Source of the DNA: an uncultured virus (IMG/VR IMGVR_UViG_2049941000_000050)
Taxonomy: Duplodnaviria; Heunggongvirae; Uroviricota; Caudoviricetes
Length of the DNA: 55,069 nt
Reading direction: 5' to 3' (one strand)
Virus record (IMG/VR): IMGVR_UViG_2049941000_000050
Shown here: positions 1-54,969 of the stretch, one piece after another
Numbering within the stretch: the first letter of the stretch is position 1
How the letters are laid out: every line of letters starts with the position of its first letter
The notes under the pieces: model-generated
The model's database searches: none
The model's input: the letters and a program-made list of their open reading frames with translations, nothing else
Told to the model about the DNA's origin: nothing
Translations under genes and position numbers: made by a program

Positions 1-1456
1 TGGGTTTATCGGAGGCCACACCCAAAAACGCCATCTGTTTCCTGGATTTTCCGTAATCAGACGCACTGACCGCGAAATTCCCGCTGGTAACGTTGTAGAC
101 GGTGCTTCCTATATTCACGGTTTTACCGATTCCGGAAGGTCTGCCGAGATATTTTCCGTACCCAAACCGGTGGTATGTGGTGCTTGTTAAATCGAACCTA
201 TTATCGAAAATAGCATCGGAACTGACCAGTGGGTTGAGAACCGTTTCCTCGTCAATGATTTCGTTCAATCCCGCTACTTCCGAAGAAATGTCGGAAAGCG
301 ACGTGAATTTCAGCAAAGAGAAGTTTCTGTTCCCGGAACCGTCATTTGTTGCGCCGTATTTGTCGTTAAACACCGAATCCGAGGAAATAAAAACGCAACT
401 TATCTGGTCACTGGTAATCGTGGTATCTTTATTGACATAATAATACCTATCATTAAAATTGTCCGCGAGAACCGTGGGTTTTGTGGAAGTCTAGTTGAAC
501 GGGACCGTTTTGTATGAGTTTCCGAGTGGGAACGTCACGTCACCCTTGGTTTTCCCGACAACAAAAACATCACCAGATTGCCACGGCTTTGTGGGAACCA
601 GTTTGTCGGCGTTGACGAAACGACCGCTGGTATTGATAAAACCGCGTTTCGTGATGGGTTTCTCATCGGAGACGTTTCTCTTGTCGATAGAGGCACGCCA
701 CTCGAAAGATTCTGTTCCGAGGGGCTTGTCGTTCATCGTCATAACGATGGAATTCGTACATCTATTGGAGAAATTGTTGCTTCCGTTGTTACTACAGAAA
801 TTGGAAGAGATATACGAGCTGTTTCCGCACTTTTCCAGCAACAGCCTTATTTGCGAACCGGCATAGAAAAACCCATGGAAATCCAAATCAAAAATAGAAC
901 TCCTGAGCGGTTCTTGACAGATGCTCTACCACCCATTTTCGGTAAGAACCTGGAGAGAGGCTATATCTTTGTAATTTACACCGCTGTTACTGGAATAATT
1001 AGCAAGGCTCAAACAGTTAAACGTGATATGGATATACGCGTTGGCGTCGGATTTGAAAGTATAAATTTCCGATTCCGCGTTCCCGTTAGTAGCACTAATC
1101 ATCGATGTAAAAGACGACGAAAGCGAGTACACCTTTCCAGAGAACACGTTCTACTGGGTCATCTTTATGTTGTTGATTGATTCGTCTATACTTTCCATAA
1201 ACTCTTCGCCGTCCCCTAAGTTCTGAATGTTGATGTTTGTGAGCTGGTTCTTCAGTATGTCGTTAACGATATACTGCCTTATCGTTTCGAGAGTTATGCC
1301 CCTCGCATACGACAACGCCTGTTGGGTCAAATCGTTGTTGTTTGTCTCGTGTGAAACAACAAACACATCACTACCCTTTACGGTAGTATCGTCTCTTCCG
1401 GTGTCCAGATTTAACTTGGTCAGGTCGTCTATGGTCTTTACTTTGATGTTTGACAT
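1..1456 (-). CDS. Putative tail fibre protein, 3'-truncated by the window edge (at least 485 aa, three TAGs)
   Basis: ATG 1456 follows GTAAATA; the frame continues through TAGs at 1151, 926 and 491 and stays open to the window edge. N-terminal TIDDL...DVFVVS anchor-like motif. Confidence 0.65.
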
Positions 1457-1477
1457 TTGGATTTACCTTACGAGAAT

Positions 1478-1484
1478 TATTTAC
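1478..1484 (-). promoter_or_regulatory. Putative late promoter GTAAATA
   Basis: Intergenic, between TGA 1490 and ATG 1456. Confidence 0.62.
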
Positions 1485-1489
1485 GTCTG

Positions 1490-3169
1490 TCAGATGGGGT
1501 ACCCGGTGGATTTTATCTTCGTCCACGGTTTCAAAACGTTAGCTGTGGTCTATTCCTAATTCATGTCGTTGTTGAGGTCGTACTGCATCGTTCCGACATA
1601 CTCGCCGTCAACATCGTTCAAAAGCCTCAGTAGGATGATATCGCTCTCTTCGATGTCTTCCCCATCGATTTCCAATTGGAGATACGGGCCGAAAAATTCC
1701 GTTTCGTCCTCTTTTAGGTACGGGTTCTGCTGGTCATTTACGATTCCAACTCCCTATAAGTCCAACGACAGAAGGTTTTTCTGAACGGTTTCCGTAATCG
1801 AGTAGAAATCCGGACTGGGGAAATCTTCTGGATTTTCCGGGGTGGACCAGTCCGCGCCGACGTCGTGTCTGTAAAGCGGGCCGTTCAGGCTTCCCTGTGC
1901 CCACCCGAGAATCCTGTCCCCGACCTTAAAATACTTTCCGTCCCCGTTGTTTGAGGTTAAAACGCCGTAAGCTATCCTGCTGTCGGCGGAAATATTCTCC
2001 CCGAACACAATCGGACCGTACTCGTACACCGCCGGATAACTCACGTTCCCGAAAGAATCTTTCGAGGAAAGGTTTCCGTAGAAAGTCCCGATAAAAGTCT
2101 GATGGTCGCCGTAAACGACGCTCAGAACCGTGTCGGCGGTAATCTCGTATTCCTTAAACTCGCTGAATTTTATGCGGTGGGTGGGATTGGAGACGTTGAC
2201 CACGTAGTTAAAGTATTTTCCGACCTCGACGTTCGAGCTGACCGAATCAATGCTCAGACCGGCTCCGCCGAAAACGTTCTCCATTGTGGTTCCGGACTGA
2301 ACCTGGAACACTTTCGAGCCGTAATAGTCCTTTTGAACGTAATAGTAGACGATTGCGACGTAATCGCTGAGACCGATGGACTCGGTGACATCCCTGACAC
2401 TCATTCTCAGGGCGTGGAAAACGTTCGGTCTGACCTCTTTCAGCACGAAAACTGCGCGTTCGCCGCCTCTCACGAGGTTGTCGAAACCGGATTCGGAAAC
2501 AAACTCCAAATTTTCTTCGGGGCTGTTTCTGTTGAAGAGAACCGCGCAGTCGTTTTGCGCCGACACGTCTATTATGAAGTGTCTGGAGAACTGGAGATTG
2601 CTCAGTTGTGAAGACAGATTGGACTGAAGCTTGAAAATCGCGGTGTCGTTACCATTCTTGCCGATTTCGCACTGCGAAACGAACGAGTCGCGGATGCTGT
2701 AAAAAGCGTTGTCTTCCCCCGGCACGACCGAAAGGCGGTCTATCTTCTGGAAAAACAGCTGTTCCGCCGAAATTGCCTGGGCTTGGCTCGAAAGCTCGGG
2801 AATCTGGTCGATGAGCAATTTTTTTTCGTTGAAATCTGAGCTCAGCTCGTCGAATTTTCCGCTCAGTTCGGAAAAATCGGAGGAAATCTTCGCGATATCG
2901 GCGGGGGTGTTTTNNNNNNNNNNNNNNNNNNNNNNNNNNNNNNNNNNNNNNNNNNNNNNNNNNNNNNNNNNNNNNNNNNNNNNNNNNNNNNNNNNNNNNN
3001 NNNNNNNNNNNNNNNNNNNNNNNNNNNNNNNNNNNNNNNCCCCGTAGGAAATCTTCTCGGACACGAACTTGTCGCCGTACTTTCTCGACACTATGAAAAG
3101 GTCTTCGGTCGAGAGGCTGTGGGAGGCGGAAAGCTCCTGAATCGACTGGTCTACTATGAAATGGCTCAT
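1490..3169 (-). CDS. Putative tail fibre-associated protein (~559 aa including a 126-N gap; three TAGs)
   Basis: N-terminal IQELS...EDLFIVSRKY...SEKISY motif; SRHFIIDV...GERAVFVLKEV domain. Reads through TAGs at 1754, 1556 and 1550 to TGA 1490. Confidence 0.68.
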
Positions 3170-3195: not shown

Positions 3196-4218
3196 TTAAT
3201 TGTTAGTGTATTCTTCTGGAATTTCCGTCAGTTTTCCGGAACACGAGACAAAAAACTCGTCTTTCGCCACCTCTTTTATCTCAATCAGAACCTTCTCACC
3301 GCGTTTCAAAACCCCCGAAAGGCGGTCGTCCCCGAAACAGAACCTCTGTTTTCCCTCGCTCGCGAAAACGACCCTCGTGTCTGTCCCACAATCCACACAA
3401 ACGTAAAGGTGCCTGGAATACCCGTCTCTGAACTCGGGAATTCTAAATTTCGTGACGCTCTGGATGGCGAGAAAATCATTCTTGGCGAAGAGTTTTAGCG
3501 TCGTGTATTCGATTTCGGCGTAAACTTTCGAGATGGCGTCCTTTTTCAGGAACCCGCTTAGGTTTTCCTAGTAGACCGGAATATGTTCCCGGAGATTTTC
3601 TATCGGTTCCGTGTCGACATCGTCGATTTGTTTCCCAAGAACCACGGTTTTTTCAGAAAGGGTCGCGTTTTTCGCGCTAAGTTCCCCGATGTTCCGCGAA
3701 TTTTCCTCGACGCGCTCCCCCATCTCCCCGAAAGACAAATCTGCGGAAAGGCTGTCGAAAACCTGCGTCGCGGAAATATGCTGTGAGTAAAAGAGCGCGT
3801 CGGAATTTTCGTCATATTTCGAAATTAGGAAAATTCCGTCACCGTCGGAAGGGAATGGGGGGGTTGGGTCGAGCTTGCTTATCGGTAGGTCGTCAGAAAG
3901 AAACCTCGTCTCGTCCTCAAACTGCTACTGCGCCATTAGAACTGGCTGAATCTGCCTGAAAGTCTCGGAATACTCGCGGTTTTCATCCTCCAGTTCCCCG
4001 TTTTCCTCCTCGAGCCTCTGGTTCCATTCTCTCAGGAACCGGTTTTCCTCCCTCAAACGTTCGAGCTCCGCCCCGTAAAACGCGGAAACCACGTTAACCG
4101 AGTTATAGACGGAGACGCTGTCATCCCCGGAGGCGTAATCGGAAATTACCGCTCCCAGTGTTATGAACTGGCTGTCAACAAAACCGTCTGAAAAACTGCT
4201 TACCAAAACATCGGACAT
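3196..4218 (-). CDS. Coiled-coil fibre-associated protein (340 aa, two TAGs)
   Basis: The frame from ATG 4218 runs through TAGs at 3925 and 3568 to TAA 3196. Heptad LREENRFLREWNQRLEEEN; the C-terminal SRHLYVCVD...GEKVLIEIKEV domain is shared with the next gene. Confidence 0.7.
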
Positions 4219-4219
4219 C

Positions 4220-5368
4220 TCACACCACACCTATGTAAACCATTACCGGCATAAAAACGTGCGTCGGCTTGGATTCCACGTCCGGAGATGAGCCGCTCTC
4301 CATGGACTTCGCGTTCTCAATCTGCCCGTCCTCGAAACTGCCGTTTATCTCGAAATCTATTTTCCCGGTCGGGGTCGAAGAACTTCCAAAACCGCACATA
4401 TCGTAGTAACCACTGCCGCCGTTTCCGATTGGAAGCTCATTTATTTTCGGGGTTTTCGGTCTTCCGGAAATCGTTACCCCGAGTATTTCGTGGGAGTGCG
4501 GCGCAAGACCGTTGTTGTACCTGACGAATTTCATCGGGTCTTCCTTCTCCGTGCCGGGGTTCATCCTTAAAAAATTCCTGAGGTCGGGAACCTTAAAGCT
4601 CCTCTTCCCGGTTTCCTCCGGTTCTGTACCGTACAGTCCGAAAGCTTCCTGAAACCTGTTCCCGTCAACCGTGAAAACCGTACCGTTCGGGTAAACCCAC
4701 CCGTCGAAATCCTCAGAATCGATATCGACGTTAAAATTGTCCCCGTATTGCCTGACGACGCTCTCGTCAAACTTGGGTAGTGCGACGAATTTTAACGTTC
4801 CCACGTCGAACACGTTAAAGTCGTCTAAGTCGACGGCGGGAACGTTGATATCAACGGTTTTGACTGTCATTTTCCCGTCCTCGGTCCAGTTGCTGACCTT
4901 AACCGTCATTATGTTCCAGTATTTCTGGTTTTCGTCGCTCAACACATCCCCGATGTTGAAATAATCGTAAACGTCGTCGTGAACGTGGTCGACCAGCGAG
5001 TAGTCGTTCCTGTCCTCGAACGCCATGCTCCCGAGATTAAGTCCCTTTTTCACCCTTTCAACGGTCTGTGAGCAAAGGTCGTGGTACTCGATTGCGAAAG
5101 AGCTCATTTCCCCGGAAAGAAAATCCTTCCTTTCCTCGTTTAAGAGGAACGCACCGGCTTCCGCCGGGTCCAGCATAATTCTCCCGTCGAAATATTCCCT
5201 GAGAATGTAGGCGTCAGAACTCAACGACGAAATCTAGTCCGCGTGCGCGATTAAAAACAAGTCGTTGTCCCCGATTTTCTTAACTTCTTTGAGCTTCGAA
5301 ATCGGGGTTCCGCTTAGTTTTTCGGACAGTCCCAGTTCTTGGTATTTCTGCAAATCTAAATCGGTCAT
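4220..5368 (-). CDS. Short tail fibre with tail-collar domain, paralogue 3 (382 aa, one TAG)
   Basis: ATGA overlap at 5365-5368; TAG at 5234. VGTLKFVA...FDGWVYPNG...FKVPDL, PHSH, KPTHVFMPVMVYIG. Confidence 0.8.
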
Positions 5369-6339
5369 ACAGGGACTCCTATGTACATCAGAACCGGGAT
5401 GTTGAAATGCGTCGGGAAATTTTCACTGTCCACCGCCTCATTTTTGGTGATGTCGGCTGTTTCCACCTTTACCCCGGACATATCGAACCTAATGTCCGCC
5501 TGAATCGTGCCGGTTTTAGAATTTCCGGTGCCGTGGTGTTTTCCGGAGAAACTGCCGATTGACTTTCCGTAAGTCTTGATGTTTCCGGACAGTGAAAACG
5601 TTCCGTCTAAGCTGAACTGGGAAATGTCGTGGGCGTGGTTCTTCAGCGCGATATTATATGCGACCCTTTTCATCGGGTCTTCGGTTTCCACGAACGGGTT
5701 GGCTTTGAGAAAGTCTTGGATTCTCGGAATCCTGAATTTCCCCTCGGTCTCCGTTCCGGTCTGAATGGTTTTGAACGCCTCGTAGGCATACGGAAACCTG
5801 TTTTTCGAGATTTCTCTCCCGTCTGGGTAAACCCATCCGTCGAAATAGTCCGAATTCTCGTCTATCGGTGAAAGTTTGGGGGCGGCGATGAATTTCAGTG
5901 TTCCTATCCTTCTTCTCATAACATCCGGGGCGGATATCCTCAAAATGCTCGGAATGCAGATGTCTTTGGAAACCCCGTCAACAACGATATGCCCGAGAAC
6001 TATAACCCTGTCCTCGCTTTCGGGGACCGAATAGTTTCTGGAATAGTGTGGGAAAACCTCGACCCTGCTGTATCTGCCGAAATGGTTGTGGTCCTTTCTC
6101 GCGTAACCGTTTTTATCCTCGGTGGCCATCGTCCCGAGGTTCATATTCCCGAAAACCGCGCTATAAATCTAATCCCGTAGCATTTTGTAGGTGGTTTTTT
6201 GGGATTTATAAAAATTGGACTCCGATTTTCCGTTCAGTGGAACACTGACTAGAAATTTATCCCTCTCCTGAAGGTCCTTTACCTCCAGCTCCTCCTGAAT
6301 CGGGCATCCTTCCAGATACTGGACGTCGATGTCGCTCAT
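5365..6339 (-). CDS. Short tail fibre with tail-collar domain, paralogue 2 (324 aa, one TAG)
   Basis: ATGA overlap at 6336-6339; TAG at 6169. IGTLKFIA...FDGWVYPDG...FRIPRI, NHAH, FPTHFNIPVLMYIG. Confidence 0.8.
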
Positions 6340-7289
6340 TTTTTGGCACCCCCGATGTAAATCATGACCGGAATAAGGTTGTGGTTCGGATAAGTCTCGG
6401 AACTGTCGGACTGAACCTGTAATTCTCCCGTCGCCGAGGTTATGTTGATGCTCCCAACCACGAGTTCATACTGGTCTTGGGTCAGATATGAGTTGTTCAT
6501 CTGCTTGCTACCGCTGTGAATCGAGTTTGAGCCTCCCGTTTCGTCGTCGTTTGGGGTTACCGGAATCTGTGTGGAAACGTCAAGTTTGACGTCCAGTTCC
6601 TCGAACGAATCCTTTCTGATTCCGTGGGTGTGCGCCGGTATCCCCTCGGTCTTTCCCTCGGTTCTCGTTGTCCCGACCTGGGTCGGCTCGGGATTCGGCT
6701 TGAAAAACGCGGAAAGGTTCGGAACACGGAAGGTTGTGGACGAATCGCTTTCCTTGAACATTTCCCACGCCTCGAGGAACCTCGATTTCTGAAACTCCGA
6801 GCCGTCGGGGTAAACCCACCCGTCGAAATTTTCCGAATCGATGTCAATGTTCCCCAGACTCGGAACGGCGAGAAACTTCAGCTCGCCGATTCTCGGTTTC
6901 TCGATTAGCTTCTCGACGCTCTGCACCGGGGATTTCACAACATAGTCTTTTATTTCCCCGTCGGCGTCGCTGACCGTGAGCGTCGCCACGTCCAGATACG
7001 TTAAGGACGGGTCTTCGTCTCTCAGATAAACCCTGACATTCGAATACTCTTCGTGCCCGTGGTTCTTTCTCGCGTAATCATCCTTGTCCTCGAACGCCAT
7101 CGACGAAACCATAAGGTTCGCCGACACGGTGGCGTTTACGCTGTCGACAAAGCTCCCGAATGAGACTTTTTTGGAGAAATGGGCTTCCTTTTTCGGGTTA
7201 TAGTTCCGCGAAATGACGAGGAAATCCCCGTCATCGGCCTGTTTTCTTCTTTCAAGTTCGGAAATTCTTCTGCCGTTAAGAACAAGCAT
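6336..7289 (-). CDS. Short tail fibre with phage tail-collar domain, paralogue 1 (317 aa)
   Basis: IGELKFLA...FDGWVYPDGSEFQKSRF...TFRVPNL, IPAHTH, ETYPNHNLIPVMIYIG; ATG overlaps the previous TGA. Confidence 0.8.
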   Translation of the reverse strand: MLVLNGRRISELERRKQADDGDFLVISRNYNPKKEAHFSKKVSFGSFVDSVNATVSANLMVSSMAFEDKDDYARKNHGHEEYSNVRVYLRDEDPSLTYLDVATLTVSDADGEIKDYVVKSPVQSVEKLIEKPRIGELKFLAVPSLGNIDIDSENFDGWVYPDGSEFQKSRFLEAWEMFKESDSSTTFRVPNLSAFFKPNPEPTQVGTTRTEGKTEGIPAHTHGIRKDSFEELDVKLDVSTQIPVTPNDDETGGSNSIHSGSKQMNNSYLTQDQYELVVGSINITSATGELQVQSDSSETYPNHNLIPVMIYIGGAKK

Positions 7290-8203
7290 CAGATGCACCT
7301 CATGTAAACGTACCCGTCCGACGACACCGAGGGAAGTTTGAATTTTCCCTCCGAGGAAATAACCGTGTAATACCAGAACCTCCCGGTAGCGTTAACTATC
7401 TTCTCTATTTTGTCAGAACCCAATTCCGCCGTGAGAATTTTATGTCCGTCGTCGGACTTCTGATATTGCACGCTCAACTGGACTGTATCATCATTACTTA
7501 AAACCGTGTAAGTGTCGTTTGACGGCGAAGAGCTGTTCAAATCTCCGGTTAAGTGTTCGTAAACCTTCGGAAAAGATGTACCGGAAATCCAGTTTCCAGA
7601 GCCACTCGAGAGCAGAACATAACCGCAATCCGAACTAAGCGACTCGTTTTTGTAATCGAGTGAGATTGTGTTAAAAAGCGGGACGTTCGAATCGACGTAG
7701 CTTTTGTTCGCGAGCTGGTTTTTCGAAGAAACGGTTTTATCGCAAAACGGGGTTCCTTTAAACTGGATATTTTGCGTTTGGACCGTTAAATCTCCGTCCG
7801 ACTTAATGCTGACGCCGTTTTTTCCGGAAATTTGCGCGGTGTCGCCCGAAAGCCCGACGTTGTTTACCACCGCCTGAAAATCCCCGGAGCCGGAACTGTC
7901 CTTGAAAACCCCTACCCCTCCGCTGACCTCTATCCCGTCGGTGAAAACCGTCTTTAGCTCGACGTTCTGGCTCTTCCCGATGTTCAGAATGTCGTTAAAC
8001 GTGCCGACCGGGACCGCGAAGGACTGGTATTTCGCCTGACCGCCCTAATCCGGGTCGGCTTCGGAGCTAATCTTATACGAAAGCTCGACAAATGAGGCGG
8101 ATATCCTGTCTTTGAAAGCATTCTGGTCCGAAAGAACACTGAGATACCCGCTCATTTTCTGAATCTGGAAAATCGGCAAATCTGAAATTTTCTGAATGGA
8201 CAT
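7289..8203 (-). CDS. Putative tail fibre/collar-associated protein (304 aa, one TAG)
   Basis: ATG 8203 with AGGAG upstream; TAG at 8045. QLANKSYVDS and GYVLLSSGSGNWISGTSFPKVYEHL...FKLP are collar-like; TGA overlaps the next ATG. Confidence 0.68.
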
Positions 8204-8232: not shown

Positions 8233-10215
8233 TTACGGGGTGTCGAACTGTCCCGCTTCGTCTTCATCATCGGGCGGGTCGTCCGGAAATTCGTAATAAT
8301 CCGTGTTGTCCGCCAGAGGGGTGGTTTGTTTCGGGATGTAACCCTTGAAGTTATCCTCTATCTCTTTTTCCAAATCGAGATAGTAGTCCGCGTCTATCGG
8401 AACGGAATGAAGGCTCTTAATGTTTTTTAAAACCGTCCCGTCCTCTTTGTTCCAATAAAAAATGACCGCCGGGATGGAGGTTTTCCCGTCGCTCCACTGG
8501 CTTCTGACAAAATACGGCTGGGACGGGATTATGGAAAACTCCATCATTGAGGTGACGGCTACCGTGCAGAAGAAATACGGCTGTTCCCTGACCCATTCCT
8601 GGAATTCCTTGTTGTCGTACACGAGACTTTCGTAGGTTTTGCACTTCGTGCATCCCCCGATGTCGGAATACTCGACGAAAACCGGGACGTGATTCTGGTC
8701 CGCGAACTTTTTCAGCTGTTCCGCGTTGTAATACCAGACTCCCGGCTTGAAATCGCTGACCTCGTCTTTGTTCACTTCGGGAATATCGTATTCGTCGACC
8801 TTCTTGTCGCCGGTCACAGTGAAAAAATGCCCCGACTTGGAAATCATCTGGACGGAACTCAGAGGCGAGCCGAGCTTCGTTATATCCTAGACGTAATCCG
8901 AGTGAGTTTTGTATATCTCCACGTCAGCCCCGGCAAAAAACTGCTCGGCTGAAAGTTCCGGGGAAAAACACCTGCTTCCGCGATTCGTCTGCTTTATCTG
9001 GGAACTGGTGAATCTCGTAAAATACTCGTTTCCGTCAGACTTTTTCCAATACAGTGTCATTTTCGCGTATGTTCCGCTCGAACCGGAACTGAAAAACCTC
9101 GGGTCCGACTGGTGCGAAATCGTTTTCCAAAAACTGTACTGGGTTCTCGCATCAGCAAAGACGTAATAAACGAGACTGCTGGTCTGGGAAACGTAATCTT
9201 TCCAAGCCTGGCGGTTTAACACCCTTTCCTCTAACGCCTTGCAAATCGTGCACCCGGAATTCTGGGTCTTGTCGGTTATTATGACCATCGGGATGTTGCG
9301 CTTCTGGGCGTCGGACAACGCCTTGTCAAATTCCGCCTGGGACGTAATGTAGGTCCCGCTGGAAACAACCTGCGTGGAGCTTTTTTGCTCGAAGGTTTTG
9401 TCGTCTATGCCGAAAAAGCGTATCGAGGAAACCGAGCTCCCCCTCAAAAAGTTCGGGTCAATCTACGTGAACGAAGAAATCGACGCCGGGAGGGTTATGC
9501 TCTTTAAATTTTCGCACCCGTCGAAAACCGAGGAGCCGAGATAGTCCATGATTGAGCGGTTGTCGGCGGAATCCTCTATCGTGACGTTTGAAAGACTCGT
9601 GCAACCTTTGAACATCTCGCTTCCCATCGACCAAATCTGGGAAGGGAAGGTTATGCTCCTCAGAGAGGTGCAGTTCGCGAAAACCCCGTTGTACACGTAG
9701 CTGGTTTTGTTTGGAAGCTTTACGTCGGTGAGACTTTCGCAACCGTCGAACGCGTGTTCGGCGAGAAAAGACGACCTGGTCATCGTTACGGATTTCAAAT
9801 CCTTGCAGTCCGCGAACGCGTACGCCTCGATTCCTGTGTCGTAAACCGTTCCGCTCAAATCGAGCGTGATGTTTTTCAGCCCGGTCCCCGCGAAAGCGTG
9901 GTCCTCGATTTTCAGAAACGTCTGTGGGCTGGTCCCGAAGGCGTCGCAACCCGTGAGGTTTCTACAGCCCATAAACGCGCTCGCGTCCACAATCTGGGTG
10001 TTGGTCCCGAAGAAAACGTCGGTCACGGAAAGGGAATTGACCAGACATTTTTTCCCGACCTCCTCCACCTTGTTTCCGAACCTCACGGAAACCGTCTGGC
10101 TCTGAATCGGATTGTCGGTCATGTCCCCGACAATCGTGATTTTTCTCAGATTGTCGGAGATTTTAATCGTCTTAATCCCGGGAGTGTCGTACCTTTTCTC
10201 AATAAAATGCGCCAT
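8233..10215 (-). CDS. BspA-type leucine-rich-repeat (LRR_5) protein fused to two thioredoxin-like CxxC domains (660 aa, two TAGs)
   Basis: Repeats AFxxCxxLxxV/IxL/FP (AFDGCESLTDVKLP, FANCTSLRSITFP). The frame continues across TAGs at 9463 and 8887 into ...NIPMVII...GCTICKALE... and ...HVPVFVEY...GCTKCKTYE...; TAA stop. Confidence 0.78.
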
Positions 10216-10216
10216 A

Positions 10217-15211: not shown

Positions 15212-16353
15212 ACCCTAGACCTCCCGACCAGCTTACAATGGAACGAGTTGGAGACCAATCCGCTTCCCGATACCCCCTAGGTGCCGGGTTTCGGGTAGGT
15301 AACGCACACCGCCGTGAGCATTTTCGACGACTTGTTTATAAAAACAATCGAGTTGGAGCCGGGATTAATCGACTTTTGGGAGACATCCCTATCCTGTGAG
15401 AGCACGTCGGAGCAGAAAACCATGTAGTTGTTGTCCCTGAAAATGAACTTCTGGTTGTCAAGCAGGTGCAGGTCGGCGTGGTAGACGTTGACAAAGGGCA
15501 TCCTGTTGGTCTGTCTTGACGGGCCGAGCTCGATTTCCCCGGAAGACTGGGCGTTGAATATCTGATAGTCGTTCGGGGTTTGGAAATACTGCTCGTTGTT
15601 ATTGTAGTCCACGTTCTGTTTGGAAAAAGTGCTCGTGTTTCTTACGTTAACCGAGTTCGCCTTAAGAATATTGGATGATGCGCCGTCGACGGATTCTGTT
15701 CCGGTGTAGGAAAGCCTGAAAATTATGTCGTATTCCAACAGTCCGTTATCGTATCTTCTAGCAAATCCGCCGAGAATCGAGTCATCCTGCGGAAGAAACT
15801 TGGTTTCGTACGGGAAAAGGTGTTTTTTTCTCGACTGGTCGCGGTTTGAGAGGTCCGTTCTGAGAATTTTTTTGTCTATGGTGGACAAATCCATTCTCCC
15901 GTACCGGTGTTCCGCGCTCTGACAATGACCGATAAGCATCGCGTTTATCTGACGCTTAATCATATTCTCGATTCCGAGCTCCACCAGCGAAACGTACCTG
16001 TTCTGGTTACTCCACCCGGACTGATTGAGTTCCGAATCGTCTGGCTTCCCATCGGAAAGAAGAACGATTTTCGGTCGGTTGTAGTTCCGGTCCTCGATTG
16101 ACCTGAGAAGGTAGAGGCTGTCGTTATTCTCCCCGTCGTACCAGACAAGGTCTCCGTAAGCGTACGCGGTCCCGTCAACCCACTGCTTTATGTTGAAACT
16201 GCCGAGAACCTCTCTCGCCACCTTGTCCAGCAGTGTGTCGTTCTATAACAATTTAACCAGATTCCGGTTAATCTGGTGGGTGTACATTATCTCGTTGGGC
16301 GACACCTCAAGGTTGGAGACGTTCTACAAAAAACTTTTCGGACTGGAACTCAT
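15208..16353 (-). CDS. Putative tail fibre protein with CBM5/12-like motif (381 aa, three TAGs)
   Basis: ATG 16353 follows GTAAATA; TAGs at 16324, 16243 and 15277; TGA overlaps the next ATG. INRNLVKLL*ND; QWVDGTAYAYGDLVWYDG; RRYDNGLLEY. Confidence 0.68.
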
Positions 16354-33053: not shown

Positions 33054-33092
33054 ACAAAACACCCAATACAAAAAAACCGTTTCCGAAAAATC

Positions 33093-33230: not shown

Positions 33231-33231
33231 A

Positions 33232-35654: not shown

Positions 35655-35678
35655 TTCTAAAACCCGAAAATTCGAAAA

Positions 35679-35685
35679 TATTTAC
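35679..35685 (-). promoter_or_regulatory. Putative late promoter GTAAATA
   Basis: Intergenic, 24 nt upstream of ATG 35654. Confidence 0.65.
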
Positions 35686-35690
35686 CCAGG

Positions 35691-37031: not shown

Positions 37032-37033
37032 TT

Positions 37034-38712: not shown

Positions 38713-38732
38713 CAATAAACTCCGTTACTTTA

Positions 38733-41700: not shown

Positions 41701-42149
41701 TTTGAGAATTCTTGGACAACCTTCCCGAAAATCTCAAGAACACCATCCTTTATCTTTTTGGTGTCGTCACCCGAGACGAGTTTTACTATCTCATCCTTTA
41801 AGTCGTTAAAAATGAGGTTTCCCAGATTATCGACCGAAGTTATCTCATTTATGAGGTCGGAAATTGCCGAGAGCGCGGACTCCCGGTTTTTCTTGAACAA
41901 CTTTATGAACTGCCCGTTGCCGTCAGCTATGTTCTTCAAAAGAAAATAAGACTAAAGAAGGTTTATGTTCTTATCGTTTTTAAACTGATTACGCTTATAT
42001 GCGACGAAAATACTGGAGAGCAACCTTTTTAGGCTGTCCTTCATTTTTTTCTGTGAATCGCTCAGGTTGCCGAGGTCGATTTCAACCCGGCTTTTCTCCC
42101 TTAGCTACCCTATTCCGTACCTTCTTCTGACCTATACTTCACTAGCCAT
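38733..42149 (-). CDS. Tape-measure-like protein B (1138 aa, 11 TAGs)
   Basis: ATG at 42149 overlaps the previous TGA. One frame runs through TAGs at 42132, 42105, 41952, 41304, 40470, 40398, 40293, 39801, 38994, 38958 and 38904 to TAA at 38733. Gly/Ala-rich hydrophobic segments (IGMAGTLAITSAFGLASIVFG). Confidence 0.65.
38734..38740 (-). promoter_or_regulatory. Putative late promoter GTAAATA (gp48-like)
   Basis: Overlaps the end of tape-measure-like gene B, upstream of the GGAG RBS. Confidence 0.6.
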
Positions 42150-45322: not shown

Positions 45323-46201
45323 TCAGAAAAAATCGATGAGGCTCCCGATGCCCTCCGAGGATTCCGCTCCGCAAAAGGCGCACTTCTCGTACTGGAACAC
45401 GGAATTGAGCCGTTCGATGAAATTCTTGGTTATGTAGTTTATCACCCCGTCCTCGGAAAATACGACGTTCTGAGGGAACATGTCGATTAGCTTTTCGATT
45501 TCGGAATACGTCATAAGGGTCAAATCCGCGGAAAGTGCGGAAGCCGGGTCGTCTTTGTCGATTACGTCGATTCGCTTAATGAAAAGGTTGACGTACTCGA
45601 TATTCCCGAAATTGTCCAGAATCTGCATTTCGGAGTCCGTCAACCCCTTGTACTTCTTCATGTAGTCCTTGTAGAAGTTGGAGACGGTTCTGACCAGCGG
45701 GTAGTTCAAAGTGAACTTAAACACGCGGTTCTGGTCCTCGATTGAAAGGATTCTGTCCGAAAGGTCGAACTTGTCGAACCGGTCGATTATCCGCTGGAAG
45801 TCCAGCTTATATACGTTCTCTTTCCCGCACTCCTTACAGACGTACTTAATCTCGTTCTTGAAATAGTTCGTCTGGTAAAGCTCCATCAGGAGGCGGATTC
45901 GGTCGAACTCGGTCAGCCTGTAAACGCTGAAACCGTCCTCGAGGCAGAGGGAGTTGATGAGCTGGCACTGCGTGTCGTAAACTATATCCTTCCGTCTCTC
46001 GTTCTGTATGGTCGTTTTTGAGAGGGTTTTCTGCTCGTTGACCGTAACATCGCGGAAAGCCACCTCGCGGTCGAGGGAATTCACGCGGATTTTATACACG
46101 GTCGTGGAGAACTTTTTCTGAAACGCGCTGAAAATCGCGTTGCTGTCCTGTAACGGGTTCCTGACTGCGGAAACCTGTGCGTTTTCTTCGGTTTTATCCA
46201 T
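45323..46201 (-). CDS. gp26: Baseplate hub assembly chaperone, gp26-like (292 aa from ATG 46201; TTG 46228 is an alternative start)
   Basis: YKIRVNSLDREVAFRDVTVNEQK...LTEFDRIRLL...CKECG...LNYP...CAFCG...SLIDFF*. Two CxxC motifs and the terminal DFF are typical of T4-like gp26 homologues; GGAG lies 6 nt before ATG 46201. Confidence 0.75.
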   Translation of the reverse strand: MDKTEENAQVSAVRNPLQDSNAIFSAFQKKFSTTVYKIRVNSLDREVAFRDVTVNEQKTLSKTTIQNERRKDIVYDTQCQLINSLCLEDGFSVYRLTEFDRIRLLMELYQTNYFKNEIKYVCKECGKENVYKLDFQRIIDRFDKFDLSDRILSIEDQNRVFKFTLNYPLVRTVSNFYKDYMKKYKGLTDSEMQILDNFGNIEYVNLFIKRIDVIDKDDPASALSADLTLMTYSEIEKLIDMFPQNVVFSEDGVINYITKNFIERLNSVFQYEKCAFCGAESSEGIGSLIDFF

Positions 46202-46236
46202 AAAATACTCCGGTACAATGTTACTCAATACCGAAA

Positions 46237-46247: not shown

Positions 46248-47492
46248 TTAGAGCGTCTCGATGGTCATAAAATCGAAGGAAAACTGGACTTGCCTGGTCA
46301 TGTTCTGCTCGGGGGACTGCGACGGGTGGATTAAAACCACCTGCGATGGTCTGCACCCGAAGAAATGGTACCTCACGTTCGAATGCTCCGTGAAGTCGAA
46401 CGTCACGGTGGCGGTGGTGTACGGTTGAGACTCGTATACCCATTTCGGGAAGGTCACCTCCCTCATCCATGGGTAAAAAACGTTCTCGATTACCGGCTTC
46501 TCGAGGTTTAGAACCTCTATCTGGAAACGGTTGTCCGAGGTTTTGACTATGGTTCCCGGAACCGGGAACTGACCCATATAGGTCTGGGTGTCGTCACCGC
46601 CCTGCTCTATCGTCGGGAAGGTCACTTTCTAAATGTAAATCCCGAAATCGAGGAGAAAATCGTTGTTTTGGAAGCGTTGTTTAACATATTCCTACACCAA
46701 GTCTTCCTCTTTATAAGACTCACTACCCATATCCTGACGATTTATAATGTGTCTGACGGTTCCTACTTCCCCGGAATCAAATTTATTGACATGGCTTTTA
46801 ATGAGGGACTGGTTAATCCCGAAATCTACAAGCTTGTTTATGACGTTGGATTGTGAGGAAAACGTTTCTCTACTGGAAAGCGTATACTGGAGTCCCAATT
46901 CTAGATTTTCTTGAAAATCACCCCGTCCGTATACGGCGCGACGCCCTTCCCAAGTTTGAAAAAAATCAGACTCAACCACGTTCGGGTAAAATTTGAACCG
47001 GCATTCGAAAGTTACCAGCGGGTCAATATGCTCGACCATCCTTTCCGACGAGAAGAAATCGTAAAAACCCTTCATACCGTCGAATTTTTTATGTTCGTTG
47101 GTCTGCTCGTAACTTACGCCGTTGTCTCCGTTGTCGCCAACCCCCCGGGCGGTTTCGGATTTGGACAGTCTGGAAAGGCTTTTCTCGTTCTTACTCCCCC
47201 CGAAGGCGTACCTTATGTTGTTTATGGTCCCGGAAACCGTTTTCCCGAGGTTTTGGACGACGGTGGAACCGACGGCTTTCGCCCTCCCGAGGGTGCCAGC
47301 CGCCCTCGCGACTATGTTCCCGGAGGTGGAAATGATGTTGGTGGCGTTCCTCTGCAACCCGGTTCCCTGGTTAATCAGTCCGGAAACCTTTTTGGGTTTG
47401 GACATCACGTCGTTGAAAGCCTTCTGGGAACTACTCCCGAGGTTTCTGTTGACTTTCTGGAGTCTGTCGGTTATGTTATCGATGGCTGACAT
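46248..47492 (-). CDS. Protein with C-terminal tail tube-like domain (414 aa, two TAGs)
   Basis: ORFs 46692..47492 and 46248..46625 join in frame across TAGs at 46692 and 46629. YI*KVTFPT parallels FCQGVSVPG; C-terminus ...FYPWMREV...YHFFGCRPSQV...QVQFSFDFM; TAA stop. Confidence 0.7.
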
Positions 47493-48208: not shown

Positions 48209-48778
48209 TCAGACCTGACCGACGAGTTTACCGTCGGCGGAATCCTCGATTTTCCAATAAACGGACTTGAGCGAAACCTCGAAGGTTGCGGCGGCGGAAT
48301 CGTTGTTGCTCATCGAAAAACCGCCGACGTTCCCAACCTTGACGCCAACCAGTTTGATGACCTCGATTACGGTCTGCATGTCGCTCGCGAGGAGCTTAAG
48401 CCGGACGCACGCGGTGGTGTTAAACGTGCGGTCACCGGCGAACACGGAACCCGCCTCGATATCCGGGTCGGCGACTTTCGCGGCCCAGGCAAGGAATGCG
48501 CGGCGGATTTCACCGGCTTGGTCGGAACGGACGGTGAGGGAATGGTCCTGCTCCATCTTCATTACGGTGGGAACCGGTACGGTGAAACCCTTAAACCCGA
48601 CGTCGATGTACTCCTGTGACCTGTTCGGTGCCTGAAAACCCTCGGCGTACATGGTGATGTGTTGGAAAACGTCGTCGATTTCCGGGTATCCGGTCGTAAT
48701 CTCCAGCTCGTACATGTTCTGTGTGCGAAGCTGGTTTGTCGACATCTGATTCAAAAACTGGTTGAGTGGAATAGCCAT
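48209..48778 (-). CDS. gp19: Tail tube protein (189 aa, no TAG)
   Basis: LRTQNMYELEI...APNRSQEYIDVGFKGFTVPVP...IRRAFLAW...TFEVSLKSVYW matches the T4 gp19 tube pattern; lies directly after the sheath genes; TGA stop. Confidence 0.88.
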   Translation of the reverse strand: MAIPLNQFLNQMSTNQLRTQNMYELEITTGYPEIDDVFQHITMYAEGFQAPNRSQEYIDVGFKGFTVPVPTVMKMEQDHSLTVRSDQAGEIRRAFLAWAAKVADPDIEAGSVFAGDRTFNTTACVRLKLLASDMQTVIEVIKLVGVKVGNVGGFSMSNNDSAAATFEVSLKSVYWKIEDSADGKLVGQV

Positions 48779-48939: not shown

Positions 48940-48975
48940 ATAAAAAACTCGGGGAGAAATCCCCGAGTTTTTTAT
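48940..48975. terminator. Bidirectional intrinsic terminator after sheath 2
   Basis: Perfect inverted repeat ataaaaaactcgggga-GAAA-tccccgagttttttat, giving a U-tract on both strands, about 22 nt downstream of the sheath 2 stop. Confidence 0.85.
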
Positions 48976-48997: not shown

Positions 48998-51900
48998 TCA
49001 GAGTTCTGTCCAGCTTCCGCCGGAAGGAAGGATGACGAAATCGACCATAATGAACTCAATCGCCTTGACCGGTTTGATTCCGATTTGGGCGTGAAGCTCG
49101 TTGTTATCGATTGTGACCGCCGTGTTGTTGGTCTCGTCGCACTTGATGGTGTAGTCGTAAAGTCCGCCGCCCAGCTTAACCTCGTTGAAGTACGGGGTAA
49201 GAAGGTCGACCATCCTCTGACGGTTGTAAGCGGTGTTACCCTCGAACAGCATATAGCGTAAAACGTTGTAGGTTGCGCGTTCGAGACGCAGGCAGAGCCT
49301 CCGTACGTTGACCCTATCCAGCGCGGTGGGTTTGGTTTGGAGCGTTTTCTGACCGTCGATGACGATGCCGTCCCTCGGGTAGTTTGTGCAGTAGTTCCAG
49401 TTCTTGGTGTATATCTGCCCAGCTTGCTTGTTGGTGGGCGAGAATGCCAGGTCCAGCGCGGAAATGCGCCCACGGGTTAACCCCGCCGGGGCGTCCCAGT
49501 AGTTGTAGTTGAGGTCCGTGAAAATATACGAGCCGCAAATCTTGATGGACGGAGGGCACCAGAAGTAGTCGCCGGAGAACTCGTCCGTCACCTGGAACCA
49601 GTTGCAGTAACCGGCACCGTAGGAGGTGTTGATTCCGGTCAGGTACTTCATGAACGGGAGGATGTCGGACTCGATGCTGTTCGTCGGCTTGGACGGACGG
49701 ATAATCTTCCGTTGACCCTGCAAGCAGAACGGGCGGGGACCGTCGGCGATGAACATGCAGTCGCGGCGGACATTCTTGCAGAAGTTGTCAAGCTTCTGTA
49801 TGACCGTCTTCCACATTTTGACGTCGCTATCCTTTCTGCACTTCCAAACCGCCGCCTCGGGGGAGGCAGGCTCATACTTGCCGCGACCGCCACACACAGT
49901 TCTGATATATTGGGCAATGTTGCTCACGCCGCCGTCGACAACGATGTCAAGCTCGCGCTCGTTGATGTCCGAAACCTTGTCGAACATAATATCCATACCC
50001 TTGAGAATCGACTCGGAGATATCGATATCCTTCTGGCACATGTCCTTGAAGAAACCGAGCATTCCGACCTTCGCGTCATCGTGCGGAATGACCAGAATGT
50101 CGACGTTCTTGTTGAACGCGTCTTTCATCGCCTCGGTCGGAACGCAGTTCGAGAAGAGGTTGACATACTCGGAATTCTCGTTAACGACGGTGTCGATGAA
50201 CGTGTCCGCGTTCGTATTCGGGTTCTTGGAGCCGCGCTCGAGCGAGCCGACGAAAGACTCCAAAATCTGGAAAGAAATCTTGTTCCCCTCGCTAGCGTCG
50301 AGGTAAGCCTGAACGACCACGAGACCGATTTTCCTCATATTTTCGCGGTCGAAACCGCCGTCCGCCTGGAGGGTGATGGGCGGGAAGAACCCGTCGGCGT
50401 CAATCGCCAGTGAGTCGAAGAAATCGTCCTTGTTATCGTCCTCAGTCTTTTCGTTGTTGATGCGCTGGGATATAATCGCAACGCCCGAAAGGTCGGACTT
50501 AATCTGGTTGGTCTTAGTTCCGTCGTCGTAAGCGAGTGTCGTAACGTCCTTAATCGGCTCGTAGTCGGTCACGCCGTCTTGCGCGACCTCAATGAGCTTC
50601 TGGGCGTAGAGGGCGTTCGCGGCGGTGGTGACAATTGGGATGATACCGATAATCTCACACTGCTTGTCTTTGCGGTTCTTGTCCTCCGGGACCTTCACGT
50701 ACTGGCGGCGGGTCTTATCGATGATGACGATTTCGTTTGTTCCGACGCGGGATTCTTCGGTGCGGTATTGGTCAACCTGGTCCATCGAGACCAGGAAAGG
50801 CGTCCCGTTCGAGGTAATCTCGCGGTATTTTTCTACCGTGGGGTCGGCGGCCTTGATTTCGGACCATTTCAGAGTTTCGTCAATCGTCTTAAGAATGCTG
50901 TCATTGAAGAGCTAACGGTCTTCGCTCAGCTCAGAGAAGAAATCGTTCGCCGTTTCGTCGATTTCGTCCGGCTCGCACTGAACAAGGTCATACTTACCGT
51001 TCCTGATTACGTCGAGAATCTTAGCGTAAACCGCCCTCTTGTCCTCATCGGTGGAACAGGTCTCGTTGCACCCATCGACCCCCATGCGGAGCTGGATGGC
51101 ATCATAACCTTCCTGGTATCGGACGGAGAGACCGTTGATGTTCTCGTAGCGGACCGTGTTGACGCTCTTACCCTTCGCGGCGAAAAGCGCGAAAACGTCG
51201 TCTGTGTTATCATCTTCGGTGCCGGGGTCGGAAGCGACCAGACCGTCAAGCTTATCAATCAGGAAATCGGAAAGCTGTCCGGAGCCGACGTTCACCTCGT
51301 CGGACTTGGCGGTCAGAATCGCGAAGTGCGCTTCGGTGTCGTACCCGAGGTAAACCGAGACAGTCTGCTCATAACAGTCGGTCAGAGCGGTTTCCTGGAC
51401 TGTGTCGATGGAGTAAAAGGCGGTCAGCTTCGGCATAATGCCGTCGAGATTGGTAATAATCTGCCCGCAATACTCCAAAAGCTCGGACTTGGAGATGGTT
51501 TTGTCAAAATCTTCGATGATTTTTTCTAGTGTTTCGCCCTCACCGGCGTAAACCTCGATAAAGGACTTGCCGCTAACGTCTTCCCTGCCGTCGCTTCTCT
51601 CGACTGTGTTGACGTTATCATTTAAAACCGCGAAGTTTTCGGCGTCTTGAAGGGTAACCTTGTCCACGGAGTCGGTCACGGCGTAGGTGTTCAGGAAAAA
51701 CTGGATTAAATCGCGGTTGTATTTCTGGCATTCCCCGTCGTGAAGCTTCTCGGCAACCTGACCGATGTCCGATTCTGGGTCCTGAATCTGCTCGAAAACC
51801 GTGGAAATGGTCTTTTCCGACGCAAAATTCAGCTTATACTTCACTGCGGCGAATTTGTTCCTAGACTCGTTGTCGTAGGGGAGTTTGCAACAGTTAACGA

Positions 51901-52141
51901 CGCCGTTCTGGTCGATTACCTCCATGGAAGCCGCGTAAAAATACCGCTCCGCCTCATTTTTCGGTTCGCCGTAGTAGCTCAGCCAGGCGTTTTTCGAGGT
52001 GAAAACCATCGGGATGTAATCTTCGCCCGAGTTGGCGAATCCGGTAACCAAAACCTTCGTCCCGGTCATGACCGGCGAGTACTGAGACTTGTCAATCTCT
52101 TTTATCTCTACGCCGGGGGCGTCAATCGTTCTAATAGCCAT
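48998..52141 (-). CDS. gp18: Tail sheath protein, paralogue 2 (1047 aa, one TAG)
   Basis: N-terminus AIRTIDAPGVEIKEIDKS; WDAPAGLTRG, GQKTLQTKPTALDRVNVRRL, KCDETNNT...IKPVKAIEFI. ORFs 50912..52141 and 48998..50785 are in frame across the TAG at 50912. AAAGGA RBS upstream; TGA stop. Confidence 0.94.
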
Positions 52142-52184
52142 GTGGGTTATCCTTTATCTGAGAAAAATTCTTAGGTCTTTCCGT

Positions 52185-52191
52185 TATTTAC
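52185..52191 (-). promoter_or_regulatory. Putative late promoter GTAAATA (sheath 2)
   Basis: Intergenic GTAAATAACGG upstream of the AAAGGA RBS. Confidence 0.7.
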
Positions 52192-52242
52192 AGAAACGGG
52201 ACGAGCTCGGAATTCCAGACAACCCAGACTGTTTTCGGGTCG

Positions 52243-54969
52243 TCATACCCCGAAATCGCTCATAACCAGCTCCTGGACGTCCACGGTCTGGTTAGTTACC
52301 GTGAAATTGAGGACTATAAACTCAATGGACTTTACCGGTCGGACGTAAATCCCGACGTGGAGTTCATTGTTGTCGATTGTTTCGGGGGTGTTGTTCCTGT
52401 CGTCGCAGACCACTATGTACTGGGAAACCCCGTCGTCGGACTGAATCCTGTCGAGATATGAGGAAACCGAATCTCTCACTCTCGACCTCAGGTACTCGGT
52501 ATTACCCTCGTAGTTGAAATACTTTAAAATATTACTGATATCTCGCTCTATCCCAAGCATCAGCCTCCGTACGTTAACCCTGTCCAGCGCGGTTTTTTCG
52601 GTCTGGAAGGTTCTCTACCCCTCGACGACTATACCCCCGACGGGGTAGTTCACCGCGTAGTTCCACGAATTTACGTAAATCTGACCGGCTTCCTCGTTCG
52701 TCGGGGAGAACGCCAGGTCGGTGGTGTCGGAAACCACCCCACGGTTCAGCCCCGCCGGGGCGTACCAGTACCTCCCGTATGTGTCCGTGTACAGGTAGAC
52801 ACCGGCGACCTTGATGGATGGCGGCATCCACATGTAGTTTCCGCCGTCGTGGTCGAGCGAGTAGAACCAGTCCAGGTACCCGGCGGAATAAGAAGAGTTG
52901 AAAATCCCGGAAATAAGCCTGATTTTTGGAAGAATAGAGTTTTGGACGGTGTTGGACGGGTTGGTCCGTCTAACGATTTTGCTGTTTCCGGTCAGACAGA
53001 GCTGTCTCGGACCGTCGGCGACGAAAATAACGTCCTTTCTGGTGTTTGAGGCAAAATCGTCGAATCTCTGGATAACCTTCCTCCAAACGTTTATCTGCCC
53101 GCGGTCGCCCATTTTGAACAGGTGCGCCGTTTCGGACGCCAAATCGTAGAAACCGCTCCTCAGAAACTGGTCTTTCACGAAATTCCCGTTTTTGTCGGTC
53201 TGGCACGTCGACGCGACGAACTGGGCGATGTTTGATACCCCGGCGTCCTCGACCACGTCGATTTCAAGGACGTTCTTGTCCCCATTCCGGTTGAAAATTT
53301 TAAGCATCGCCTCGTAAATCGACTTTGAGACGTGGATTCGCTTCTCGGTGTCGGCTTCGTAGAATCCCATCGAGCACCCTACCTGGTTGTTGACGGCGAG
53401 AATCGACGCGTTTTTATACCCGTTTTCCCCAACCGGAACGTTAGAGAAAAGGTTCACGTACCTGGAATTCCCGTTGACTATGTCGTCGATGAAAACCCTT
53501 TCCCCGGTAACCTCGTCCACGGCTTCCGGGTCGAGCGAGCCGACGAAGGATTCCACCGGGAAGAAGTTCATTTTCCCGCTATCAGCTGTGTCGCGGTAAA
53601 CCTTGAACACCACCAGCCCTATCTGCTTGAGGTATCGGCGGTCAAGCCGGTCCCCGACAAAGGTTACCTCGGGAAAATACTCAGCGGACCTCTCGGAAAG
53701 CGTGTAGTCGTTTACCGTAACCCTCCAGCCATCTTTTTCCTCCTGACCGAGGTACTCGCCCATCCCGACGAAATCCCTTTTGGTGCCGGATAAATTCTCG
53801 ACCGTCGTGTCAAGGGAATCCACCGGGCGGACGGAATCCTCCGGGAGCCCCTCCCTGTGCGAGTTTCTGACCTTCCCGATTACGTTGTAGTCCGAAAGGA
53901 CGCTGTCGCTCTTCTGAATTACCTCCTGGTAGAAAACGGCGTTGGCCGGGGAAACGATTACCGGCATAATTCCGAAAACCTAGTTCCCGAACTGGTCGGT
54001 CTCGTATTTTCCCCTGGTCTGGTCGACGATAAAAATCCTGTTTTTTGGAACCTTCAGCTGTTTAATCAGAAACTTGTCGTAGTTTTCGAAGGAGAGAAGC
54101 TCCTCCGAACCGTAAACCGAAGAATTTATCCCGAGATACGACGAAACCGAGTCGTCCACCGTCCTGATTTCGGAATACCTGTTCCCGGAGAATTTCCCGT
54201 AAACTCCGGAAAGGCTTGAACTGCACTCGTCGCCGTAAGCTTCCTCGAAGTAACCCCTCAGCTCGAAGAGGTATTTGGTCCTCAGCCAGGTCCCGAGAAG
54301 CGTTTTCGCGTCGATTTCGTTACCGAAAGCCTGCCGTATACTCTCCGCGATTCCGCCGTAGGCGGAAATTTCCCCGCTTACCGGCGAAAGGATGACGTCA
54401 AAAATTCCCGGTGCCTCGTTGACGTCGGAAAACGCCTCGTCGTAAATCTCTTGGTCGGAAAGCTGGAAATTCGCCATGTCCCTCACATAGGAGACGAAAT
54501 CCCGAAGGGAACCGAGCTGTTTTCCGTCCAGATAGTCGGATATGGTGTTTTTGTCCGGGTACAGAAGGTAGTCCGCTATGGTTTCGTCAGACAGATTCCC
54601 GAACCCGACGATTTCCTCGACGGTTTTAATCGGTACGGGCTCCTGGGAAACCTCGTAAGACGTATAGACGAATTTCTCGAAGGCGTTGTTGTGGTATGGG
54701 AGCTTGGCGACGTAGCAGATTCCGCCGCGTGAAACCGTCTCGTAAGCGGCGTTGTAAAGGTAGCGTTCCGCCTCTGTCTTCGGTTTCCCGTAATTTTGCA
54801 CGAAAGTGTTCATCGTGTTGACCCACCTCACGGTGTAATCCTCACCCTTGTCGGCAAAGCCGAGGGCGAGCGTCGCGGTTCCTATGGTGGAATTGTCTGC
54901 CGCTTGGTCGTACTGTGAGCGGTCAATCTCGTTTACTTCGATACCGGGGGCGTTGATTCTTCGTGCCAT
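52243..54969 (-). CDS. gp18: Tail sheath protein, paralogue 1 (908 aa, TAG read as Gln)
   Basis: N-terminus ARRINAPGIEVNEIDRS; C-terminal YWYAPAGLNRG, G*RTFQTEKTALDRVNVRRL and VVCDDRNNTPETIDNNELHVGIYVRPVKSIEFIVLNF are T4 gp18-family motifs. Three track ORFs join in frame across TAGs at 53980 and 52615; true stop is TGA at 52243. Confidence 0.93.

Follow-up and report, generated by a model that had tools for sequence, protein, structure and literature searches.

Reassignment of the stop codon TAG to glutamine (Gln, Q; NCBI table 15, here code 15) is known from the Lak, Jade, Sapphire, Agate, Garnet, Amethyst and Topaz phage clades (Borges et al., 10.1101/2021.08.26.457843), for which the accessible part of the study reports that structural and lysis genes are the main site of recoding, that 26-71% of the genes have in-frame stops, and that suppressor transfer RNAs (tRNAs) were detected in 40% of the TAG-recoded genomes. 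[quoted passage not shown] In crAss-like phages TAG=Gln was confirmed by metaproteomics (Nat Commun 2022, PMC9523058), which, as far as that text is accessible, is the sole protein-level proof found in the literature searched. Here we analyze a stretch of 55,069 nucleotides (nt; GC 49.2%) of the uncultured virus IMGVR_UViG_2049941000_000050 from IMG/VR, which is referred to in full as the window and stems from the cattle gut according to the run labels. It very probably represents the tail gene block of a contractile-tailed phage in which TAG serves as a normal sense codon, most probably for Gln, and in which termination relies on TGA and TAA only, the decoding machinery being postulated by analogy. 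As far as sequences can tell, every defining feature of TAG-to-Gln recoding that is testable in a 55-kb fragment was found in the window.

With TAG taken as a sense codon, 33 open reading frames (ORFs), all on the minus strand, tile 98.4% of the window (Table 1); 32 are complete, the 33rd (2..1456) leaves the window at the left end, and 10 of the 32 gene junctions overlap. The 18,029 codons of these ORFs include 66 in-frame TAGs, distributed over 21 ORFs, and neither a TAA nor a TGA, while the two off-frames of the same ORFs contain all three stops (TAA 339/309, TGA 416/244, TAG 175/80). The complete ORFs terminate in TGA (19) or TAA (13) and never in TAG, and reading through TAG extends the longest stop-to-stop frame from 746 to 2596 amino acids (aa). 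Coding cover was determined with a custom greedy tiling (not with Prodigal), for which ORFs were taken from start to stop codon with a minimum length of 60 aa. Under the standard bacterial code (code 11) the tiling yielded a cover of 88.9% with 63 ORFs, 10 of which lie on the plus and thus wrong strand, and with TAG as sense a cover of 97.7% with 32 ORFs, every one on the minus strand; the controls with TGA or TAA as sense gave 87.4% (62 ORFs) and 89.4% (59 ORFs), respectively. The gain in coding is therefore specific to TAG. A preliminary description of the sequence had counted about 65 in-frame TAGs in 21 genes, had noted that the genes end in TAA or TGA, and had proposed a comparison of coding density between the two codes; the recount, the terminators and the tiling bear this out.

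The TAG codons make up about 9% of the Gln codons (66/713) and are spread roughly evenly over the genes (permutation p 0.06), as is expected for a minor synonymous codon. The read-through products are collinear with full-length homologues, 101 in the case of the sheath and 15 in the case of the 2592-aa protein, and the public code-11 fragments of the 1138-aa tape-measure-like protein (P0118, residues 71-281; P0130, 586-618; P0119, 640-782; P0117, 790-1051) end at its TAGs. As a separate observation, the base that follows TAG is a purine in 55 of 66 cases, as compared to 361 of 532 cases after CAG (Fisher p 0.010), and a T in 4 of the 66. The purine bias may come from selection for a context that favours read-through, a reading suggested by work on amber suppression in E. 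coli.

The TAGs were recovered from independent assemblies of the DNA. A Logan contig from run X1 (22,898 nt, depth 87.8) covers positions 23701-43594 with a single difference, at position 27000, which is not a TAG site, and thus reproduces all 32 TAGs of that range. A piece from run X6, which belongs to a separate study, matches positions 41265-41548 with 0 differences and retains the TAG at 41304-41306, and near-identical fragment variants of the tape-measure-like gene (P0118 and P0262, both 211 aa) were found again in other sources. These findings bear directly on the possibility that the TAGs are not decoded at all and represent either pseudogenes of a decaying element or systematic errors of sequencing or assembly. 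The scaffold does contain four runs of N (2914-3039, 22536-22580, 43701-43710 and 43917-43926), some with duplicated flanks, which means that the assembly is locally imperfect. Decay would however be expected to introduce all three stops as well as frameshifts, at variance with the exclusive occurrence of TAG in frame, and the proteins are still collinear with their homologues; errors, on the other hand, would have to be repeated by an independent assembler at a depth of 88, in the identical piece of a second study and in the variants that recur elsewhere, of which P0118 is bounded by TAGs. We consider the chance that the TAGs are not decoded to be negligible.

The identity of the inserted amino acid is best approached via the first sheath paralogue, where the TAG at residue 785 lies in the motif EG-x-(K/R)TFQ, the sole conserved column in the window that holds a TAG. 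In 89 homologues this column contains Q 80 times (H 4, D 2, gaps 3). The aligned codon in 239 related DNA loci is CAG (86), CAA (84), GAT (40), GAC (27), AAC (1) or TAG (1), i.e. a Gln codon of the standard code in 170 loci, and since these are DNA-level codons the count does not depend on how the homologues were gene-called. The window sheath has the consensus residue in 124 of the 125 columns of the 89-homologue alignment that are at least 90% conserved, so that residue 785 is, judged by this alignment, almost certainly Gln. The alignment of the two sheath paralogues (E 1e-141) likewise places TAG opposite Q. The 16 TAG sites with at least three aligned homologues were then scored in the manner of Codetta, with substitution frequencies taken from the same alignments. 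The summed log-odds were 2.21 for Q, 1.36 for glutamate (Glu, E) and 0.74 for lysine (Lys, K), and negative for the remaining residues; when sets of 16 sites were drawn for calibration, Q was called for 472 of 500 sets of true-Q sites and for 13 of 500 sets of true-E sites.

Gln is thus the best-supported meaning of TAG in the window according to these comparisons, in line with the preliminary description, which had suggested an alignment of homologues at the TAG columns as a check and had put TAG on Gln from three internal alignments. The codons that it had singled out at 52615 (sheath), 35571 (ORF 33888-35654) and 46629 (ORF 46248-47492) are all TAG, and in all three alignments TAG stands opposite Q; that of the sheaths is solid, and the other two turned out to be local similarities of low significance (pairwise E 0.009 and 0.008). 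Further sources of TAG columns were of limited use. A full-library HMMER search with the 1138-aa protein gave 23 matches, mainly its own fragments or short and weak ones, which left 4 of its 11 TAG sites usable. The homologues of the 1664-aa protein were discarded for its 6 TAG sites, as 80 of 82 match only the C-terminal InlB-type repeat, and the IMG/VR relatives L002-L081 added no columns, only the sheath being similar, with gp53 or the hub in 1-2 loci.

The closest relative at the DNA level is L161, a 12.8-kb contig (GC 44.7%) binned in a metagenome-assembled genome (MAG) of the Sphaerochaetaceae. It shares its gene order with the window over the two sheaths, the tube genes and the hub gene, with identities of 39-56%; its six genes contain no in-frame TAG and end in TGA (4) or TAA (2). 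The standard code was found in the nearest relatives L161-L165, L007, L013 and L003, and eight related loci gain nothing from TAG as sense, with TAG terminating 5 of their 98 ORFs, so that the lineage is surrounded by phages with a standard code and rare TAG stops and the switch falls within the phage clade. The opposite situation is seen in L082, a metagenome contig of 1,177 nt (GC 46.9%) that encodes a sheath relative, in which 391 codons include 8 TAGs, no TAA or TGA, and 5 CAA/CAG, making TAG its majority Gln codon (8/13). Three of the L082 TAGs fall on columns that hold Q in 80/89, 80/86 and 82/84 homologues. In a FastTree phylogeny of 92 sheath C-terminal regions (support values left aside), L082 is found on a branch that differs from those of both window paralogues. 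The use of TAG in the sheath family is graded, from 0 in L161 via 9% of the Gln codons in the window to 8/13 in L082.

A comparable difference may exist between close strains. The sister cluster of sheath 1 comprises JGI fragments (P0222-P0231) that are 98.6-100% identical to the full-length 1051-aa protein P0001 and that all end directly before its residue Q907 and restart at M948; from these proteins it looks as if near-identical sister strains differ at Q907 in having a Gln codon or a stop codon. As to other relatives of the window phage, the 32-kb IMG/VR contig L001 has a sheath match of 100% identity, and the nearest virus record shares 56% of the sampled words of the window, consistent with L001. 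The five MAGs that carry related contigs gave no match to the 2592-aa protein. A second contig of run X1 (depth 7.8 versus 88) aligns in short islands with many differences within 26896-29748, which is part of the giant protein and the gp6-like genes, indicating that a diverged relative co-occurs with the window phage.

Several observations speak against the reading of TAG as Gln, or limit how far it can be taken: i) the columns of most TAG sites are variable, with E, K or D as frequent as Q, the column of sheath residue 330 being E 49, D 15, S 10 and Q 8, that of residue 1471 of the giant 2592-aa protein E in 11 of 15 and its other TAG columns variable, with E, K, D, Q or hydrophobic residues mixed; ii) one TAG of L082 is aligned with hydrophobic residues (L 55, I 17, V 9); iii) the margin of Q over E across the 16 sites is small (0.85 nats), so that from these sites alone Gln is favoured and not proven; iv) the assignment comes from sequence comparison and not from peptides; v) run X1 may be the source sample of the window, in which case its contig is a check by an independent assembler and not by an independent sample; vi) 40 of the 255 strain differences were listed, and TAG sites in runs X5 and X6 were scored only in pieces with 0 differences; and vii) no decoding machinery came to light in the window, as ARAGORN found 0 tRNAs, Rfam returned nothing at threshold besides sub-threshold matches to His_leader, and none of the 33 window proteins matched a Pfam family of release factors or glutaminyl-tRNA synthetase (GlnRS).

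The first of these points raises the question whether TAG is a sense codon for another residue, namely Glu, Lys or pyrrolysine. E and K come next after Q in the 16-site score and are favoured at residue 330 of the sheath, residue 1471 of the giant protein and residues 66 and 584 of the tape-measure-like protein, and microbes that use pyrrolysine live in the rumen. The one conserved column argues the other way, as neither E nor K was found there in any of the homologues or DNA loci, and so do the three TAGs of L082 whose columns hold Q in over 90% of the homologues. The phage TAG reassignments in the accessible parts of the published studies (Borges et al.; PMC13037316) are moreover all to Gln. 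We therefore regard a meaning other than Gln as very unlikely.

The seventh point relates to the mechanism. That a tRNA with anticodon CUA and an altered release factor are not visible in the window had already been stated in the preliminary description, and the present searches agree; the 15 related loci that were scanned for tRNAs also gave 0. The window covers just part of the genome, and from the published recoded phages we infer that the machinery would be encoded elsewhere in it. In this scheme, the host would use the standard code, as the literature on recoded phages suggests, and a Gln-charged phage tRNA with anticodon CUA would give UAG its new meaning in the course of infection, possibly with the addition of RF2 or an interference with release factor 1 (RF1), so that the TAG-bearing late genes could not be completed before the decoding machinery is expressed. 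The window comprises late structural genes only, and for that reason the recoding, which the preliminary description had called window-wide, cannot be extended to the whole genome.

Alternatively, the host itself might read TAG as Gln or carry a suppressor, in which case the phage would mirror its host and neither a phage switch nor a role in timing would be involved. We know of no bacterial lineage with TAG=Gln, and the nearest relatives of the phage use the standard code. The lack of visible machinery in the window and the even spread of TAG over the genes fit such a host, although this evenness concerns late genes only, the decisive comparison of early with late genes being absent from the window. 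Suppressor tRNAs were also detected in just part of the recoded genomes of both surveys (40% and 60.78%, see above). Phages that match a recoded host nevertheless carry the codon in around 90% of their genes, according to the accessible part of Borges et al., as compared to 64% (21/33) in the window, a value that lies within the 26-71% reported there for recoded phages. A code dictated by the host thus appears very improbable to us, and a recoding by the phage, with TAG as Gln, is retained.

Compared to the clades of Borges et al. (in so far as their description is accessible), the window is similar in that in-frame TAGs occur in late structural genes, stand opposite Gln and affect most but not all genes, in that close relatives have a standard code with rare TAG stops (the 5/98 ORFs mentioned), and in its origin from the animal gut, which for those clades includes cattle. 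It differs in its GC of 49% and in TGA being the commonest stop (19/32), as opposed to a low-GC route dominated by TAA, and in that a suppressor tRNA and RF2 were not found in the window; the clades are furthermore defined on the large terminase, which the window does not contain. As in the accessible part of the jumbo phage survey (PMC13037316), hallmark structural genes come out in pieces with code 11 and intact with code 15. Sheath homologues with 35-58% identity are located on metagenome contigs of up to 338 kb (250-338 kb for the relatives compared), which makes it probable that the clade consists of jumbo phages; unlike these, the longest public contig with the exact proteins of the window phage measures 40,523 nt (40.5 kb). 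The earlier label of a large phage is thus an inference from such relatives.

With the crAss-like phages the window shares the TAG reassignment, as described in the accessible part of PMC9523058. An assignment to the Crassvirales was ruled out by the contractile tail genes: with two sheath genes, three paralogues of the tube and a baseplate of T4 type, the window stands apart from these phages, which resemble podoviruses and lack a sheath. The similarity to T4-type tails extends over the gp6-like, gp25, gp53 and T4_baseplate/hub proteins, the gp5-type OB spike, the C-terminal domain of the sheath and the tube, and to this extent the earlier term T4-like was appropriate. It does not hold as a statement of close kinship, as tblastn of the sheath against 50,697 phage records gave 2692 matches, mostly to T4-like phages and cyanomyoviruses, all below 60% identity (24-28% among the best 25 of the 2692) and none covering 80% of the sheath. 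The sheath is also tandemly duplicated and much longer (908 and 1047 aa), and most other window proteins hit no family. Membership of the Straboviridae was accordingly rejected, only the family-level architecture of the tail being common to both.

The coordinates of all features are collected in Table 1. Gene families were assigned by Pfam and PHROGs, and by these predicted families the window is a late module for a contractile tail (tail, baseplate and fibre genes) with T4-type baseplate families.

Table 1. Features of the 55,069-nt window, listed in the direction of the minus strand; ORFs are read with TAG as sense codon
Position	Strand	Feature	Length (aa)	In-frame TAG	Matches and remarks
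52243..54969	-	tail sheath paralogue 1	908	2	TAG at aa 330 and 785; Phage_sheath_1C, E 9e-13; 101 homologues
48998..52141	-	tail sheath paralogue 2	1047	1	TAG at aa 410; Phage_sheath_1C, E 2.6e-13
48940..48975	-	inverted repeat, terminator-like			perfect 16-nt repeat, 4-nt loop, flanked by A-runs and T-runs
48209..48778	-	tail tube paralogue	189	0	PHROG 45 (tail tube), E 2.4e-17; 50% identical to L161
47506..48132	-	tail tube paralogue	208	0	PHROG 45, E 9e-13
46248..47492	-	tube-like protein	414	2	PHROG 45, E 1.1e-4
45323..46228	-	baseplate hub-type protein	301	0	T4_baseplate, E 2e-7; PHROG 150; 56% identical to L161
45066..45383	-	small ORF, start uncertain	105	2	tblastn to L161, 32% identity
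43678..45057	-	tape-measure-like, N-terminal part	459	0	3' end spans two 10-N gaps with duplicated flanks
42149..43693	-	tape-measure-like, probable continuation	514	7	N-terminal 33 aa duplicate the end of the ORF upstream
38733..42149	-	tape-measure-like protein	1138	11	
37372..38715	-	structural protein, no family match	447	3	
37034..37375	-	gp53-like baseplate wedge	113	0	Phage_gp53, E 6e-5
35691..37037	-	no assigned family	448	0	
33888..35654	-	no assigned family	588	2	one TAG at 35571-35573
33232..33870	-	weak N-terminal similarity to 33888-35654	212	0	
32274..33071	-	spike / gp5-type OB-fold protein	265	0	Phage_base_V, E 1.6e-5
30290..32266	-	no assigned family	658	2	
29808..30284	-	gp25-like baseplate wedge	158	0	GPW_gp25, E 3.6e-11
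27808..29748	-	gp6-like baseplate wedge	646	2	PHROG 219, E 7.6e-31; Gp6-like_1st below cut-off
20025..27803	-	giant structural protein	2592	9	spans 45-N run; 15 homologues of 2200-3050 aa
19050..20003	-	no assigned family	317	1	
17598..19037	-	no assigned family	479	0	
16382..17587	-	no assigned family	401	0	
15208..16353	-	no assigned family	381	3	
10217..15211	-	large protein, C-terminal Listeria-Bacteroides (InlB B-type) repeat	1664	6	Flg_new below cut-off
8233..10215	-	BspA-type leucine-rich repeat (LRR) and thioredoxin-like protein	660	2	LRR_5, E 2e-53; Thioredoxin_7, E 1.8e-8
7289..8203	-	no assigned family	304	1	
6336..7298	-	fibre-like paralogue	320	0	
5365..6339	-	fibre-like paralogue	324	1	
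4220..5368	-	fibre-like paralogue	382	1	
3196..4230	-	coiled-coil protein	344	2	
1490..3169	-	no assigned family	559	3	spans 126-N run
2..1456	-	no assigned family	at least 485	3	leaves the window

The two sheath genes lie in tandem and their products are 38.5% identical over the C-terminal 646 aa. A tandem sheath duplication is also present in the standard-code contig L161 (974 and 1159 aa; L161 174-6692), and as each window sheath shares a major branch with one of the L161 copies, the duplication is old. The inverted repeat lies 23 nt past the stop of the second sheath gene, between the sheath and tube genes, and is built like an intrinsic terminator for both directions, judged by its terminator-like sequence; this hairpin explains the His_leader matches, which were obtained on both strands.

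Two of the runs of N (126 and 45 N) have lengths that are multiples of 3 and the reading frames continue through both, so that they act as masked stretches and not as gaps of estimated size. The two 10-N gaps have near-duplicate flanks, 43596-43700 versus 43712-43816 (96%) and 43820-43916 versus 43928-44024 (97%); the Logan contigs stop in this region, where two variants exist over 43565-43680, and the duplicated flanks at 43596-44024 give the impression of strain variants that were left unmerged where the scaffold was joined. With 116 nt (2 mod 3), the spacing matches the shift in frame between the two ORFs at this location, 43678-45057 and 42149-43693, which are thus probably a single tape-measure-like gene, bringing the true number of ORFs to 32.

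Near the left end of the window, three paralogues in a row (4220-7298) are 28-32% identical with conserved C-terminal ends, and from this similarity they probably represent alternative versions of a fibre or tip protein. Two large proteins with repeats of a type known from bacterial surface proteins (8233-15211) are candidates for parts that bind the host on the basis of their domains; the homologue list of the 1664-aa protein is dominated by proteins with InlB B-repeats. The Sphaerochaetaceae bin in which L161 was found is at best a weak hint to the host.

The recoding of TAG to Gln has already been published for gut and rumen phages, including jumbo phages, and the present case does not change the known phenomenon; it adds a recoded cattle-gut phage of intermediate GC with a tandemly duplicated sheath. 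Gene calling with the standard code cuts the essential tail genes of this phage into pieces, and any functional or host-range interpretation of such contigs requires TAG to be read as Gln. The relatives, one with a standard code and one that is much more recoded, provide material to study how and why phages capture a stop codon. A tentative possibility, which we hold to be rather doubtful, is that the window reflects an independent and fairly recent switch from amber to Gln that bypassed the low-GC, TAA-only state, in a clade of animal-gut myoviruses which are probably jumbo phages and mostly keep the standard code. If this were true, L161, the window, L082 and the sister strains that seem to differ at Q907 would offer a natural series in which to study the stepwise capture of a stop codon.

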